Assembly (NCBI GenBank): GCA_031379415.1
Contig: JANNFE010000166.1
Coordinates: 156 to 64,155 of the forward strand
Source of the DNA: Betaproteobacteria bacterium
GTDB taxonomy: Bacteria > Pseudomonadota > Gammaproteobacteria > Burkholderiales > Burkholderiaceae_C
Direction: 5' to 3'
Length of the DNA: 64,000 nucleotides
A program made the position numbers and the translations under genes. Each line of letters begins with the position of its first letter. Position 1 is the stretch's first letter. This document shows positions 6,032-55,808 of the stretch, one piece after another. Below the pieces are notes generated by a model, which had not been told where the DNA came from, did no database searches, and worked only from the letters and a program-made list of their open reading frames with translations.

Positions 6032-8872
6032 ATGCTGCCCGCGCCCTACGACGAGCTGCACCGCAGGCTGGCCGCCTTCATCCCCGCTGCGCGCCTGGTG
6101 ACCGACCCGCTGCGCCTGCTGACCTGGGGCACCGACGCCAGCTTCTACCGCCTGCTGCCTAAGCTGCTGGTGGTGGTGGACAGCGAAGACGAGGTGCAGC
6201 GCCTGCTGCCGCTGTGCGCACTGCTGAAGACGCCGGTGACCTTCCGTGCCGCGGGCACCAGCCTGTCGGGCCAGGCACTGTCGGATTCGGTACTGGTGCT
6301 GCTGGGCGACGGCTGGCGCGGCATCCGCGTGGCGCCCGACGCCAGCACGGTGGCGTTGCAGCCCGGCGTCATCGGCGCCGCGGCCAACCGCGCGCTGGCC
6401 GCGCAGGGCCGCAAGATCGGGCCCGACCCGGCGTCCATCGACGCCGCCATGATCGGCGGCATCGCCGCCAACAACGCCAGCGGCATGTGCTGCGGCACGG
6501 CGCAGAACAGCTACCACACGCTGGCCGGCCTGCGCGTGGTGCTGGCCGACGGCAGCCTGCTCGACACGCGCGACGCCGACAGCCGCGCCGCCTTCGCCAG
6601 CCGCCGCATCGACCTGCTGCAAGGCCTGCGCGAACTGGGCCGCGACATCCGCGACAACGAGACCCTGGCGGCGCGCATCCGCCACAAGTTCCGCATGAAG
6701 AACACCACCGGCTACAGCCTGAACGCGCTGGTGGACTTCGAAGACCCCATCGACATGCTGGCGCACCTGATGATCGGCTCCGAAGGCACGCTGGGCTTCA
6801 TCAGCGAGATCAGCTACTTCACGGTGGAAGAGCACCCGCACAAGGCCAGCGCGCTGATCCTCTTCGACCACCTGGAAGTGGCCTGCACCGCGGTGTCGCT
6901 GCTCAAGGGCACGCCGGTGGCAGCGGTGGAACTGCTGGACCGTGCCTCGCTGCGCGCCGTGCAGGCCAAGCCGGGCATGCCGGCGGCGCTGCGTGAACTG
7001 CCAGCCGACGGCGCGGCGCTGCTGGTGGAGATCCGCGCCGAGACGGCCGCCGCGCTGGCGGTGAAGACCGGCGCCGTGACCGCGGTGCTGCAAGGCACGC
7101 ACCTGGCCACGCCGCTGCGCTTCACCACCGACGCCGCCGAGTCCACCGCGCTGTGGAACGTGCGCAAGGGCATCTTCCCGGCCATCGGCGCGGTGCGGCC
7201 CACCGGCACCACGGTGATCATCGAGGACGTGGCCTTCCCGGTGGAGCGCCTGGCCGAAGCCACGCTGCATCTGCAGCGCCTGTTCATCGAACACGGCTAC
7301 CCCGACGCCATCGTCTACGGCCATGCGCTCGACGGCAACCTGCACTTCGTCTTCACGCAGGACTTCGGCAGTGCCACCGAGGTGCAGCGTTATGCCGACT
7401 TCATGGACGCGGTGTGCGACATGGTGGTCCACACCTACGACGGCTCGCTGAAGGCCGAACACGGCACCGGCCGCAACATGGCGCCCTTCGTGCAGATGGA
7501 ATGGGGTGCCGAGGCCTTTGCTGCCATGCAGCGCATCAAGGCACTGTTCGACCCGCAGGGCCTGCTCAACCCCGGTGTCATCCTGAACCCCGACCCGAAG
7601 TCGCACCTGAAGAACATGAAGCCGCTGCCGGCTGCCGACGTGCTGGTGGACAAGTGCATCGAGTGCGGCTTCTGCGAGCCGAAGTGCCCGTCGAAAGGGC
7701 TCACGCTGTCGCCGCGCCAGCGCATCGTGGGCTGGCGCGAGATAGCACGGCTGGACGCCACGGGCGCCGATGCGGCCCACCGCGCCGAGATGAAGACGCT
7801 GTACGACTACCACGGCATCGAGACCTGCGCCGCCTGCGGCTTGTGCGCCACGGCCTGCCCGGTGGGCATCGAGACCGGGCTGCTCATCAAGGCGTTGCGC
7901 GGGCGCCAGGCCAGCCCGCTGGCCAAGCAGGTGGCACAGGTCGCGGCGCGCCACTACGGCGCGCTGACCCGCGGCGTGCGCCTGGGCCTGGGCGCGGCCG
8001 ACACGGTGCACGGCCTGCTGGGCACCGGCGCCATGAAGGGCCTGCTCGACGCGCTGCGCCAGGCCAGCGGCGGGCGGCTGCCGAAATGGTCACCGAACCT
8101 GGCGCGGCCGGTGAACTTCGTGCCGCGGGCCAAGACCCAGGCTCGGGCTGCGAGCCACGCTGAGCGGCTCGTCTACTTCCCGAGCTGTGCCGCGCGCAAC
8201 ATGGGCGCGCAACGCGGCCACGAAGGCGTGGAGATGCTGCCGCTGGTGGCCGAACGTCTCTTCGAGCGCGCGGGCTATGACGTGGTCTACCCCGCCGGCC
8301 TGGGCGGCCTGTGCTGCGGCCAGCCCTTCGAAAGCAAGGGCCTGGTGGACGCCGCGAACCACAAGTCGGGCGAACTGGAAGCCGCGCTGCTGGACGCCAG
8401 CGAAGGCGGCCGCCAGCCCATCGTCTTCGACACCAGCCCCTGCACCTACCGCATGAAGCGGGTGCTGGCCGGTCGCTTGGCCATTCACGACAGCGTCGAG
8501 TTCGTGCACGACACGCTGCTGCCGCGCCTGCAGCTGCAGCCGCAGGCCGAACCGGTGGCCGTGCACCCGGTGTGCAGCGTGCGCAAGATGGGCACGGTGG
8601 ACCAGCTGCTGGGCATTGCGCGGGCCTGCAGCACGCAGGTGTGCGTGCATGACGAGGTGCAGTGCTGCGGCTTTGCCGGCGAGCGCGGCTTCATGCGGCC
8701 GGAGCTCAACGAGCACGCCCTGCGCCATCTGAAGGCCACGCCACCGGCCGGCTGCAGCACCGGCTATTCCACCAGCCGCACCTGCGAGATCGGGCTGTCG
8801 GAAATGGCCGGGCTGCCCTACCAGTCCATTCTGTACCTGGTAGACCGCGTCAGCACGAATCAGCCCCCGTGA
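6032..8872 (+). CDS. dld: FAD-linked, Fe-S-containing D-lactate dehydrogenase (Dld-II type)
   Basis: FAD_binding_4 start (DAS.YRL.P, FRAAGTSLSGQA, GPDPAS, GG..ANNASGMCCG), GHALDGNLHF, SLKAEHGTGRN, 4Fe-4S motifs CIECGFCEPKCP and CAACGLCATACP, two CCG domains; AAGGAG SD before ATG 6032. Confidence 0.85.
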   Translation: MLPAPYDELHRRLAAFIPAARLVTDPLRLLTWGTDASFYRLLPKLLVVVDSEDEVQRLLPLCALLKTPVTFRAAGTSLSGQALSDSVLVLLGDGWRGIRVAPDASTVALQPGVIGAAANRALAAQGRKIGPDPASIDAAMIGGIAANNASGMCCGTAQNSYHTLAGLRVVLADGSLLDTRDADSRAAFASRRIDLLQGLRELGRDIRDNETLAARIRHKFRMKNTTGYSLNALVDFEDPIDMLAHLMIGSEGTLGFISEISYFTVEEHPHKASALILFDHLEVACTAVSLLKGTPVAAVELLDRASLRAVQAKPGMPAALRELPADGAALLVEIRAETAAALAVKTGAVTAVLQGTHLATPLRFTTDAAESTALWNVRKGIFPAIGAVRPTGTTVIIEDVAFPVERLAEATLHLQRLFIEHGYPDAIVYGHALDGNLHFVFTQDFGSATEVQRYADFMDAVCDMVVHTYDGSLKAEHGTGRNMAPFVQMEWGAEAFAAMQRIKALFDPQGLLNPGVILNPDPKSHLKNMKPLPAADVLVDKCIECGFCEPKCPSKGLTLSPRQRIVGWREIARLDATGADAAHRAEMKTLYDYHGIETCAACGLCATACPVGIETGLLIKALRGRQASPLAKQVAQVAARHYGALTRGVRLGLGAADTVHGLLGTGAMKGLLDALRQASGGRLPKWSPNLARPVNFVPRAKTQARAASHAERLVYFPSCAARNMGAQRGHEGVEMLPLVAERLFERAGYDVVYPAGLGGLCCGQPFESKGLVDAANHKSGELEAALLDASEGGRQPIVFDTSPCTYRMKRVLAGRLAIHDSVEFVHDTLLPRLQLQPQAEPVAVHPVCSVRKMGTVDQLLGIARACSTQVCVHDEVQCCGFAGERGFMRPELNEHALRHLKATPPAGCSTGYSTSRTCEIGLSEMAGLPYQSILYLVDRVSTNQPP

Positions 8873-54756: not shown

Positions 54757-55808
54757 CCTACATCACCAAGCCGCGGCTGCACCACCCCACGCTGCAGACC
54801 AACAAGGTCGGCTACACGCGGCGCGACTACGAAGGCCGCATCAGCACGCTGTGCGCCGGCTGCGGCCACGACAGCATCTCGGCGGCCATCATCCAGGCGG
54901 CCTGGGAACTGGACATCGAACCGCACCGCGTGGCCAAGCTCTCGGGCATCGGCTGCAGCTCCAAGACGCCCGACTACTTCCTGGGTGCCAGCCACGGCTT
55001 CAACACCGTGCACGGCCGCATGCCGAGCGTGCTGACCGGCGCCAACCTGGCCAACCGCTCGCTCATCTACCTGGGTGTCAGCGGCGACGGCGACAGCGCC
55101 AGCATCGGCCTGGGCCAGTTCGCCAACGCCATGCGGCGCGGCGTGCGCATGGCCTACATCGTCGAGAACAACGGCGTCTACGGCCTCACCAAGGGCCAGT
55201 TCAGCGCCACCGCCGACCGCGGCAGCAAGAGCAAGAAGGGCGTGGTCAACAGCGACAGCCCGGTCGACCTGGTGGGCATCGCTTTGCAGCTCGGTGCCAC
55301 GTTTGTTGCGCGCAGCTTCTCGGGCGACAAGGCGCAGCTGGTGCCGCTGATCAAGGGCGCGCTGGCCCTTGGCGGCGCCGCCTTCATCGACGTCATCAGC
55401 CCCTGCGTGACCTTCAACAATCACGGCGGCAGCACCAAGAGCTATGACTACATCCGCCAGCACAACGAAGCGGTGAGCCGCGTCGACTTCATGACGCCGG
55501 GCGAAGAGATCACCGCCGACTACGCCGCGGGCGAAGTCATCGACGTGCCGCAGCACGGTGGTGAGTTCCTGCGCCTGCGCAAGCTGCACGCCGACTACGA
55601 CCCCACCGACCGCTACGCCGCGCTGGCCTACATGAACGAACATGCCAAACATGGCGAAGTGGTCACCGGGCTGCTGTATCTTGACCCGCTCGCCACCGAC
55701 CTGCACACCGCGATGAACACCTGCGCCGCGCCGCTGGCCAGCCTGGCCGAACGGCAGTTGTGCCCGGGCAGCAGCGCGCTGCAGAAGATCAACGCCTCGC
55801 TGCGCTGA
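54753..55808 (+). CDS. korB: 2-oxoacid:ferredoxin oxidoreductase beta subunit
   Basis: LCAGCGHD, SGIGCSS, HGR, TPP motif GDGDSASIG, NNG.YGLTKGQ.S.T, SPCVTFN. Confidence 0.92.
   Translation: MTYITKPRLHHPTLQTNKVGYTRRDYEGRISTLCAGCGHDSISAAIIQAAWELDIEPHRVAKLSGIGCSSKTPDYFLGASHGFNTVHGRMPSVLTGANLANRSLIYLGVSGDGDSASIGLGQFANAMRRGVRMAYIVENNGVYGLTKGQFSATADRGSKSKKGVVNSDSPVDLVGIALQLGATFVARSFSGDKAQLVPLIKGALALGGAAFIDVISPCVTFNNHGGSTKSYDYIRQHNEAVSRVDFMTPGEEITADYAAGEVIDVPQHGGEFLRLRKLHADYDPTDRYAALAYMNEHAKHGEVVTGLLYLDPLATDLHTAMNTCAAPLASLAERQLCPGSSALQKINASLR

Follow-up and report, generated by a model that had tools for sequence, protein, structure and literature searches.

The question raised by this locus is whether genes for lactate and 2-oxoacid oxidation, a second respiratory complex I, a NapC/CymA-like quinol dehydrogenase, the MtrCAB conduit and an octaheme nitrite reductase (ONR) form one respiratory system, and in which direction the electrons would run through it. 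The genes lie in a stretch of 64,000 nucleotides (contig JANNFE010000166.1 of assembly GCA_031379415.1, a Betaproteobacteria bacterium of the Burkholderiales) that is referred to here as the window. A first-pass annotation of this DNA had described them as one integrated circuit with an FNR-like box at nearly every promoter.

Judged by gene content, conservation and promoter elements, the window from ~5 to 39 kb is a horizontally mobile, probably oxygen-regulated anaerobic respiration island, and the grouping of its genes is not due to chance. We lean modestly towards an island that would be activated by FNR and would run in the forward direction, in which NAD(P)H and lactate would reduce ubiquinone and a CymA-like cytochrome (CymA*) would reoxidise the quinol and hand the electrons to MtoD and MtrCAB, and perhaps also to ONR. 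The wiring proposed in the first-pass annotation is partly supported: it is plausible, the island is real and its grouping is conserved, but the KorCAB enzyme of the window is not a conserved part of it.

Conservation of the island

The window has a G+C content of 70%; genes were called by third-position GC (GC3) and named by Pfam and NCBIfam profile scans (Table 1). All modules named in the first-pass annotation (Dld-II, korCAB, nuoA-N, the NapC/CymA-like gene, mtoD-mtrCAB and ONR) were confirmed in the window by the gene map and the scans. The host genome assembly consists of 430 contigs, and gene absences from this genome are therefore provisional.

The core of the island has the order mtoD-like cytochrome c, cymA*, mtrC, a helix-hairpin-helix (HhH) gene, mtrA, mtrB and then nuoA-N, the last encoding a complete, divergent alternative complex I. 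At least six further genomes or contigs repeat this core, as do about 8-11 of the 40-46 metagenome loci that have alternative complex I. The carriers of the cassette (L, G and C numbers are our handles for loci, genomes and contigs) are L006, L009/L015, L010/L016, L020 with mtr inverted, L071 and L072, with L011 representing the nuo part. The arrangement in GCA_964269315.1 and in one ENA assembly is identical to that of the window, from the mtoD-like gene through nuoN to a minus-strand cNMP-binding gene. A partial NCBI contig has the nuo portion of the arrangement, the contig of an Ideonella metagenome-assembled genome (MAG) stops in alternative nuoA directly after mtrB, and in one further assembly mtrCAB is inverted relative to nuoA. 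Across the genomes that repeat the mtrB-nuoA junction the MtrB proteins are 43-57% identical, and as the junction recurs despite this divergence it is old and maintained.

Two sub-modules travel with this core elsewhere, namely Dld-II/FNR/ONR and a unit of three genes for an SRPBCC-cNMP protein, a membrane iron-sulfur protein with CCG domains (FeS/CCG) and a hemerythrin-domain protein. Genome G301 (GCA_044226775.1) carries alternative nuo, mto/mtr, SRPBCC/FeS-CCG, ONR, Dld-II and FNR on one contig within 72 kb. Two further assemblies have ONR-TPR-Dld-II-FNR at 37-43 kb from mtoD-cymA*-mtr on a common contig, and L071 repeats the order of the window from FeS/CCG through nuoA.

The co-occurrence of the modules that the first-pass annotation had proposed to check was examined in 18 genomes, four of them with alternative nuo; the sample is small and the Fisher tests ignore phylogeny. 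CymA* orthologs (at least 64% identity) were found in three of the four genomes with alternative nuo and in none of the 14 without it (p=0.005), and Dld-II orthologs (at least 70%) gave the same counts (3/4 vs 0/14, p=0.005). For ONR the figures were 2/4 and 0/14 (p=0.04). Together with G301 and the metagenome loci, these counts show that the modules do co-occur, and the lack of co-occurrence that the first-pass annotation had named as refuting was not observed. An earlier co-occurrence test among family species representatives had seemed to refute the grouping: MtrB is found in 11 of 301 family genomes (it is absent from both same-genus genomes), and the other ten have neither alternative NuoF nor ONR. 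This objection fell because those ten Mtr clusters are of a different subtype with a canonical NapC, and because the closest contexts of alternative NuoF do show the linkage.

The surroundings of alternative nuoA were surveyed in 40 metagenome loci with at least 1.5 kb of upstream sequence. Directly upstream stood Mtr in eight loci, the SRPBCC-cNMP/FeS-CCG pair (often with hemerythrin) in nine, and a 2-oxoacid oxidoreductase (OFOR) with a GltD-like flavoprotein and malic enzyme in seven. Dld-II, a type-B Sdh/Frd and a cNMP gene were found once each, and 13 of the 40 had none of the recognised partners.

Such variety invites a different explanation, that of a loose anaerobic toolbox. Its modules would have nothing in common but FNR control and past co-transfer, and each would join the general quinone pool on its own. 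The alternative complex I would then be an anaerobic NADH isozyme, and KorCAB and ONR would have no special tie to complex I or to CymA*. Module order and content do differ between genomes, the 13 loci without a recognised partner fit, and CymA* is not among the conserved neighbours of ONR, which are NrfE, the TPR protein, Dld-II/FNR and sometimes the FeS/CCG protein. Against it stand the recurrence of the mtrB-nuoA junction at such low MtrB identity and the confinement of CymA*, within the 18-genome sample, to genomes with alternative nuo. With the further evidence on the nucleotide site and on the OFOR operons given below, we regard the toolbox as unlikely.

FNR-type boxes at the promoters

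Boxes were searched with the model TTGAT-N4-ATCAA at up to two mismatches unless stated otherwise. The window contains 17 matches where shuffles gave 3.4, and four at no more than one mismatch where 0.79 were expected. The raw count was nevertheless dropped as evidence, as the genome-wide density is 13.6 per 64 kb, and was replaced by intergenic shuffles and footprinting; with that density the number is unremarkable and the location of the boxes carries more weight. Intergenic sequence amounts to 3,445 bases (5.4% of the window) and holds seven boxes, compared with 0.14-0.26 expected from shuffles of the same bases; two more overlap gene ends within the onr and korC promoters. The boxes precede dld/fnr, onr, nrfE/hemerythrin, the SRPBCC operon, mtoD, mtrC, nuoA and korC.

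Boxes also recur at orthologous promoters. The onr promoter has an equivalent box in L018 and a perfect one in G301, and mtoD promoters have boxes at the equivalent place in L015 and L008 (both perfect), L016 and L007. The mtrC box is identical in L015 and similar in L016, while L012 has exactly the nuoA box of the window and L006, L015 and L016 have nearly the same one. Of 63 alternative nuoA promoters, 48 contain a box at a distance of no more than 250 bp; among random windows the figure is 35 of 400 (a background of ~9%). The intergenic enrichment and this conservation bear out the claim of a box at nearly every module promoter and point to FNR control of the island promoters. An FNR-like match at 22501, inside the HhH gene, is probably not regulatory, as it is conserved as coding sequence.

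The alternative complex I and its nucleotide site

All 14 core subunits of complex I are encoded in one operon in the canonical order, and nuoA starts after a 148-bp spacer behind mtrB. NuoA-J were named by NCBIfam, mostly below the equivalog cut-offs, and NuoK-N were assigned through orthologs of 62-83% identity in loci with Pfam Oxidored_q2 and Proton_antipo_M genes. NuoC and NuoD are separate proteins. NuoG (30314-31768) has only 484 residues (481-495 in homologs) and is without the molybdopterin-like C-terminal domain, so that only positions 1-326 of the 606 of TIGR01973 are matched. NuoD keeps the His and Tyr of the quinone site, as its GPSHPATHG and DRLNYVS motifs align with solved enzymes, and its best structural relatives are ubiquinone enzymes.

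The Glu183Ala-type NuoF of the first-pass annotation is borne out by alignment. The window protein reads GAGSYVCGEASAL where E. coli has GAGRYICGEETAL, followed further on by PRNRPPRL; Glu182 is retained and Glu183 is replaced by Ala (codon GCT at 29527). In the Thermus alignment the signature positions are Nqo1 Glu185, Lys202 and Phe205. The signature A183/R200/R203 (E. coli numbering) is present in 120 of the 120 closest NuoF homologs (77-87% identity), and the clade has a GHGGAAF loop. A canonical nuo is present as well in the host genome, on contig C214; its NuoF is 47% identical and has a GEETAL motif. The genome encodes an additional FDH/Hox-type NuoF homolog. The alternative clade was found in two of the 301 family species representatives and on at least 559 metagenome contigs, and is common in soil, sediment and rhizosphere.

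In canonical NuoF, Glu183 binds the 2'-OH of the adenosine ribose and excludes a 2'-phosphate, and Phe203 stacks on the adenine. Morina and co-workers reportedly obtained, in 2011, E. coli NuoF Glu183 variants with up to ~200-fold better catalytic efficiency with NADPH; the variants are said to have still pumped protons and to have produced more reactive oxygen species. A higher production of reactive oxygen species at a flavin site of this type would fit expression under anoxic conditions only. To our knowledge, proton-pumping NADPH:ubiquinone activity of complex I has so far been reported solely for such engineered E. coli variants, and we know of no natural energy-converting NADPH:quinone complex I that has been characterised. 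In the NuoF homolog FdsB of Rhodobacter capsulatus, E259X variants (Glu259 being equivalent to E. coli Glu183) gave NADP+ activity, as did L279R at the equivalent of position 203, and the authors cite the E. coli Glu183 work (PMC10671435).

The nucleotide site of the alternative complex I looks suited to NADPH, and we infer NADPH use from its residues. That the clade would be a natural proton-pumping NADPH:ubiquinone oxidoreductase, expressed only under anoxic conditions and serving as a portable coupling site that drains NADPH from decarboxylating dehydrogenases to extracellular metals, electrodes, fumarate or nitrite, is a tentative proposal that we consider less likely than not. The loose toolbox finds support here in known cases of second complex I isozymes whose expression depends on conditions (Spero et al. 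2015, PMC4453560), yet the A183/R200/R203 signature is shared across the clade and speaks for an altered nucleotide specificity and not for another NADH enzyme.

The mto/mtr cassette, CymA* and the quinone pool

The genes mtrC, mtrA and mtrB are contiguous with the HhH gene in the gene map, and by gene content MtrCAB is a porin-cytochrome conduit that is predicted to transfer electrons across the outer membrane. MtrC scores 423 bits against TIGR03507 (cut-off 209), and the HhH protein is 59% identical to an HHH_3 protein at the equivalent place in L016. Orthologs of the MtoD-like cytochrome (75-84% identity) precede CymA* in L019, L020 and G301. Directly upstream of mtoD in L015, L016, L019, L020 and G301 (C2:339920-341617) there is a Formyl_trans_N/ECH_1 fusion gene that is absent from the host genome; it is often preceded by hyp/hup hydrogenase maturation genes.

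CymA* has a hydrophobic N-terminal helix visible in its sequence and is the only NapC-family gene in the host genome at E<1e-20. Its score against TIGR02161 (NapC/NirT) is 180 bits, below the cut-off of 310.6, and its first heme motif is CGNACH-SH (CX3CH) instead of the CxxCHxM of the family. The FCGxxCHSH motif is found in 120 of the 120 closest CymA* homologs, and by this motif the CX3CH proteins are a distinct subfamily at the quinone-proximal heme.

No RquA, MenD or MqnA/D was found in the host or in the other genomes with alternative nuo, while control genomes gave the expected matches; a UbiE-like methyltransferase at 45352-46227 was rejected as RquA (31 bits vs a cut-off of 175). As these genes are missing from its genome, the host probably has ubiquinone as its only quinone, and CymA* may be adapted to ubiquinone/ubiquinol. 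Two Burkholderiales MAGs that have mtoD-cymA-mtrCAB without alternative nuo carry the canonical FCIGCHEM motif in CymA, and in both an rquA above the NCBIfam cut-off lies immediately beside the cluster (L008, G304:C183:15487-16140; L007, G303:C443:17979-18635). Mtr seems to travel with either a gene for a low-potential quinone or the alternative complex I.

2-oxoacid oxidoreductases and the korCAB-like operon

The KorC-like product of the korCAB-like operon of the window is a GltD-like flavoprotein that carries a 2x[4Fe-4S] domain at its C-terminus; the other two genes encode an OFOR subunit in which gamma and alpha are fused and a thiamine pyrophosphate (TPP) beta subunit. The gamma/alpha subunit scores 585 bits against TIGR03710 (cut-off 483); the beta subunit has a TPP_enzyme_C domain and scores 189 bits against TIGR02177 (cut-off 262); the flavoprotein has Fer4_20 and Pyr_redox_2 domains and a GGGNTAMD motif. 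The subunit make-up is that of a KorABC-type oxidoreductase, with putative use of 2-oxoglutarate and NADP+.

The first-pass annotation had counted this operon as a member of the circuit, and this claim was not supported. Unrelated genes, among them those for PhaC, CFA synthase, LysR, TctC and bactofilin, fill the 12 kb between nuo and korC. Orthologs of the window-type KorCAB (74-78% identity) are found in seven of 12 relatives that have no island and are never near Mtr, and the promoter check found no FNR box at the korC ortholog of the same-genus genome G138. The flanks of korCAB share no neighbours with G138, so that no island borders could be drawn from synteny. The window korCAB is tied to the island solely by its own one-mismatch FNR box and is not a conserved part of it, and its independent distribution suits the loose toolbox.

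The OFOR operons joined to alternative nuo elsewhere are of a non-orthologous type with separate gamma, alpha and beta subunits, and their GltD-like protein is 29% identical to KorC. An in-line arrangement of OFOR, a GltD-like NADPH-type flavoprotein and malic enzyme ahead of alternative nuo was found in 7-8 loci. NADPH-type 2-oxoacid oxidoreductases are associated with the alternative complex I as a pattern, and their recurrence with malic enzyme in the same apparent operon is a further point against a toolbox of unconnected modules. The host genome has a separate-subunit OFOR at C7:2196-6664 and Sdh/Frd on C28 and C388, all unlinked to the island.

In L013, L079, L087, L096, L098 and others the genes for OFOR gamma/alpha/beta, the GltD-like protein and malic enzyme and then alternative nuoA-N run in one direction, and a three-subunit type-B-like Sdh/Frd often lies divergent upstream. 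This arrangement resembles an anaerobic branch of the tricarboxylic acid cycle wired to the alternative complex I.

Direction of electron flow

In the forward reading, which we favour slightly over its denial, FNR would turn on the entire gene set as oxygen falls. The alternative complex I would oxidise NADPH, and probably NADH too, reduce ubiquinone and pump protons, and would be the site of energy coupling, while Dld-II would deliver electrons from lactate into the same quinone pool. CymA* would reoxidise the quinol and pass electrons via MtoD to MtrAB-MtrC, with extracellular Mn(IV)/Fe(III), humics or electrodes as the end acceptors at MtrC; ammonification of nitrite by the periplasmic ONR may be a further outlet, for which cymA*, as the sole NapC-family gene found in the genome, encodes the obvious candidate donor. 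The source of NADPH would be NADP-linked enzymes that decarboxylate their substrates, and the FNR-boxed KorCAB-like enzyme is a candidate for this in the host genome. This direction is favoured since the donor-side Dld-II co-occurs with alternative nuo and since NADPH-generating partners stand in the same operons. A flavin site with a higher output of reactive oxygen species, in keeping with expression under anoxic conditions only, also counts on this side. With four protons per two electrons, sending electrons back from ubiquinol into an already reduced NADPH pool is unfavourable on thermodynamic grounds.

The same island could run in the opposite direction. In that case Fe(II), Mn(II), reduced minerals or cathodes would supply the electrons that MtrCAB, MtoD and CymA* carry into ubiquinone; part of the quinol would be burnt with nitrite (by ONR) or low oxygen to generate a proton-motive force, and the alternative complex I, reversed, would provide NAD(P)H for biosynthesis and for reductive carboxylation by OFOR and malic enzyme. 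The mtoD and mtoC-type genes are markers of the Fe(II)-oxidation cluster of Sideroxydans, and Group 4 Mtr includes Ramlibacter lithotrophicus, a species linked to oxidative electron transfer (Baker 2022, PMC8805035). In a host with ubiquinone only, flow from Mtr to ubiquinone is downhill and the opposite is hard. The quinone-proximal heme motif of CymA* is altered, whereas the rquA-linked clusters retain the canonical one, the hyp/hup genes that flank the cassette in relatives suggest lithotrophic hosts, and the OFOR, malic enzyme and Sdh beside alternative nuo could be carboxylases fed by reverse flow. On standard values, however, ubiquinol to NADPH needs ~0.45 V and four protons per two electrons at a normal proton-motive force give ~0.34 V, and NAD+ would be an easier acceptor than NADP+. 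MtrC is typical of reducers, and Dld-II, besides co-occurring with alternative nuo, adjoins a lactate permease and/or LutABC in relatives, which fits organotrophic forward use. Taken together, electron uptake strikes us as rather improbable for this island.

Several observations do weigh against the forward reading. MtoD and MtoC carry names from Fe(II) oxidisers. The order of the accessory modules is not conserved between genomes; alternative nuo is found without Mtr in G285, L012, L013 and many metagenome loci, and CymA*-Mtr without adjacent nuo in L019; the distribution of KorCAB was described above. Ala183 may merely relax the nucleotide specificity. With a potential of ~+100 mV, ubiquinol is ill suited to reduce low-potential multiheme chains, and the quinol oxidised by canonical CymA is menaquinol. 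In relatives, the Mtr clusters linked to rquA suggest that a low-potential quinone is normally required. The last two considerations favour either electron uptake or high-potential acceptors only.

Feature map and left-hand modules

Table 1. Features of the window, in order of position (identifications rest on profile matches, motifs or similarity), with the corresponding contig of G301 in the last row.
Feature	Position	Strand	Basis or remarks
fnr, O2-sensing [4Fe-4S] FNR regulator	4994-5746	-	NF008365, full length; divergent from dld
FNR-like box CTGATCCAGATCAA	5850-5863		fnr/dld divergent promoter, intergenic, 1 mismatch
Dld-II-like FAD + 2x[4Fe-4S] + Cys-rich dehydrogenase, 956 aa	6002-8872	+	FAD_binding_4, FAD-oxidase_C, Fer4
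Second Crp/Fnr-family regulator	8860-9558	-	HTH_Crp_2, cNMP_binding
TPR CcmH/NrfG-like heme-lyase accessory protein	~9720-10328	-	directly 3' of onr
Octaheme nitrite reductase ONR, TvNiR type	10325-11953	-	7 CxxCH + CMSCK
FNR-like box TTGATGCATGTCAA	12067-12080		114 bp ahead of onr start, 1 mismatch
NrfE/CcmF-type heme lyase (for CxxCK heme)	12077-14014	-	TIGR00353 652 bits, over cut-off; TIGR03145 675 bits
FNR-like box TTGACTCACGTCAA	14114-14127		between nrfE and hemerythrin gene
Hemerythrin-domain protein	14180-14665	+	PF01814
Membrane protein, N-terminal multi-helix + 2x[4Fe-4S] + CCG (HdrED/DsrMK-like fusion)	14644-16647	-	Fer4, CCG
SRPBCC (Coq10/RatA-like START) + cNMP-binding protein	16666-17655	-	Polyketide_cyc, cNMP_binding
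Two FNR-like boxes	17737-17804		upstream of SRPBCC-FeS/CCG operon
FNR-like box	18277-18290		102 bp ahead of mtoD-like gene
MtoD-like periplasmic monoheme cytochrome c	18392-18697	+	one CSKCH, signal peptide, Cytochrom_C
CymA*, membrane-anchored NapC/NirT-family tetraheme	18735-19358	+	PF03264 187 bits, profile 2-173 of 174
FNR-like box CTGATGTGAATCAA	19490-19503		122 bp ahead of mtrC ATG
MtrC/OmcA-family decaheme outer-surface lipoprotein, collagen-like linker	19625-22402	+	10 CxxCH, lipobox LAAC
Secreted HhH protein between mtrC and mtrA	22405-22707	+	similarity
MtrA decaheme periplasmic cytochrome	22708-23667	+	10 CxxCH; Paired_CXXCH_1, NrfB-like
MtrB/PioB outer-membrane porin	23697-25790	+	PF11854 476.5 bits, profile 5-635 of 635
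FNR-like box TTGATCCACCGCAA	25831-25844		95 bp ahead of nuoA
Alternative complex I operon nuoABCDEFGHIJKLMN; its 14 genes overlap or almost abut	25939-39168	+	NCBIfam + orthology
NuoF nucleotide-site signature	29527-29589	+	Ala175 (= E. coli Glu183), Arg192 (= Lys200), Arg195 (= Phe203)
Small cNMP-binding-domain protein, 166 aa, after nuoN	39184-39684	-	PF00027
FNR-like box TTCATCCAGATCAA	50972-50985		110 bp ahead of korC, 1 mismatch
korCAB-like operon	51095-55808	+	Pfam, TIGR03710; 4-bp gene overlaps
G301 contig	309-327 kb; 332-340 kb; 356-358 kb; 373.6 kb; 378-381 kb; 381 kb		alternative nuo + Sdh/Frd; mto/mtr; SRPBCC/FeS-CCG; ONR; Dld-II; FNR, respectively

The FNR protein of the window scores 229.8 bits against NF008365 (cut-off 228), and inspection of its sequence shows an N-terminal C-X2-C-X5-C cluster, a central Cys and an ETVSR motif. 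Its orthologs (68-80% identity) adjoin Dld-II/ONR in L018, L021, L022 and G301. The second Crp/Fnr-family regulator has no N-terminal Cys cluster, an ESVSR recognition motif and a weak FNR-family score of 78 bits; it adjoins the nitrite reductase genes and may act as a Dnr/NnrR-like sensor with the same boxes as its targets.

In the Dld-II-like protein, FAD-oxidase N- and C-domains are fused to 4Fe-4S and Cys-rich domains, and its C-terminus has partial GlpC/GlcF-like matches in NCBIfam; identity with the YdiJ equivalog was rejected (140 bits vs a cut-off of 1350). It is probably a D-lactate:quinone dehydrogenase. Orthologs in relatives are 69-78% identical, and those in L021 and L022 (73-76%) are adjacent to LutABC in both loci and to a lactate permease in one, which supports the assignment to lactate. 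Within the 64-kb window no lactate uptake or utilisation genes were found.

ONR aligns over its full length with the solved octaheme nitrite reductases PDB 8rv0 and 2ot4 at 491-502 bits. It has eight heme motifs including the catalytic CxxCK, with three extra N-terminal hemes ahead of an NrfA-like core. The motif CAQCHVEYNCNPG, with the Tyr and, two residues on, the Cys of the predicted cross-link, is identical in the query and 8rv0, and HVEYNCNPG is conserved in the alignment with both structures. An NrfE ortholog (62% identity) precedes ONR in L021. The TPR gene was located by similarity and not by the GC3 gene map; it is 60% identical to a TPR_CcmH_CycH protein after ONR in L018, and its position after ONR is repeated in L017, L021 and L022.

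The FeS/CCG protein has partial matches to TfrB, DsrK and TmcB in NCBIfam and is a candidate quinone-linked redox protein. Its gene lies immediately ahead of ONR in Rubrivivax sp. A210, the SRPBCC-cNMP gene travels with it in relatives, and the hemerythrin gene accompanies FeS/CCG or NrfE in L021, L030 and L042. The SRPBCC-cNMP, FeS/CCG and hemerythrin unit is divergent from alternative nuoA in nine of the 40 loci (L030, L039, L042, L047, L049, L050, L052, L056 and L077); in the window and in L071 the mto/mtr cassette sits between this unit and nuoA, as if inserted. The cNMP protein after nuoN has a 76% ortholog at the equivalent place in L010 and L011; L044 and L045 have a homolog upstream of nuoA.

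Relation to known systems

The novelty claimed in the first-pass annotation was overstated. Baker et al. (2022, mBio, PMC8805035) had already described Burkholderiales Group 4 mtrCAB with mtoC, mtoD and HhH and with neighbouring frdABCD and ccm; neither 'nuo' nor 'NADH' occurs in the text of that paper. Like Group 4 and the betaproteobacterial Group 3 mtrCAB (PMC8805035), the island has mtrC-HhH-mtrA-mtrB with adjacent mtoD and an mtoC/CymA-like gene, a patchy, horizontally transferred distribution and, in relatives, neighbours of the fumarate-reductase type. It differs from Group 4 in the complete second complex I after mtrB, the CX3CH CymA* and the attached ONR and Dld-II modules.

The island shares with the CymA hub of Shewanella oneidensis the FAD/FeS type of D-lactate dehydrogenase, a NapC-family quinol dehydrogenase, an ammonifying multiheme nitrite reductase and MtrCAB. 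The Shewanella hub has dispersed genes, menaquinone, a pentaheme NrfA and CRP/cAMP control, whereas the island has clustered genes, a probable ubiquinone-only host, the octaheme ONR, FNR boxes, a CX3CH heme 1 and a dedicated complex I. The mtoA-mtoB-mtoD-cymA(mtoC) cluster of Sideroxydans lithotrophicus ES-1 likewise places an MtoD-like shuttle and a NapC-family protein beside an MtrAB-type porin-cytochrome in a ubiquinone betaproteobacterium, with a proposed link to complex I via the quinone pool; it is without MtrC or complex I, whereas the island has MtrC and a linked complex I with an altered nucleotide site.

Ebenau-Jehle and co-workers reportedly described in 2003 that KorABC of the betaproteobacterium Azoarcus evansii is a 2-oxoglutarate:NADP+ oxidoreductase under anoxic conditions. 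From such descriptions, the window operon resembles it in having a two-subunit-type OFOR and a third flavin/FeS subunit that would pass electrons to NADP+, and differs in that the third subunit also has a ferredoxin-like domain. ONR resembles Thioalkalivibrio TvNiR (PDB 2ot4) and 8rv0 in its eight heme motifs including CxxCK, the YNC motif and a full-length match of ~490-500 bits, but its host is a neutrophilic member of the Burkholderiales and its gene is embedded with the NrfE and TPR lyase genes beside Dld-II/FNR.

The E. coli NuoF Glu183 variants and FdsB E259X/L279R (PMC10671435) parallel the alternative clade in the change of Glu183 to a small residue and of position 203/279 to Arg. Those are laboratory mutants; the clade is natural and widespread, and adds the GHGGAAF loop, the short NuoG and the FNR boxes. 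Similarly, Rhodobacter sphaeroides has clade A and clade E complex I isozymes (Spero et al. 2015, PMC4453560), in which a horizontally acquired second nuo beside the canonical one is expected to serve other redox conditions. Compared with clade E, the island has unfused NuoC/NuoD and a NuoG of 481-495 residues, and neither the signature nor the linkage to Mtr, OFOR, Sdh or Dld-II is described there (PMC4453560).

The Group 4 mtrCAB gene set, second complex I isozymes, ONR, Dld-II and KorABC-type enzymes are already known. In the limited literature searched we found no description of a natural NADPH complex I or of an mtr-nuo linkage, nor of the A183/R200/R203 clade signature, its FNR control, its recurrent partners (OFOR/GltD-like/malic enzyme, Sdh/Frd, Dld-II and FeS/CCG) or the CX3CH CymA subfamily.

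Implications

If the alternative complex I does prefer NADPH, it would fill a known gap, as anaerobes that oxidise substrates in NADP-linked steps (by isocitrate, 2-oxoacid and malic enzymes) have to feed the resulting NADPH into respiration. Complex I and Mtr together make up a compact cassette of ~21 kb, in which a coupling site is joined to a quinol dehydrogenase, a shuttle in the periplasm and a wire across the outer membrane, and its transfer could explain how energy-conserving extracellular electron transfer appears in new hosts. The clade is common in soils and sediments, where the island may be relevant to iron, manganese and nitrogen cycling, and it may also be of use in bioelectrochemical engineering.

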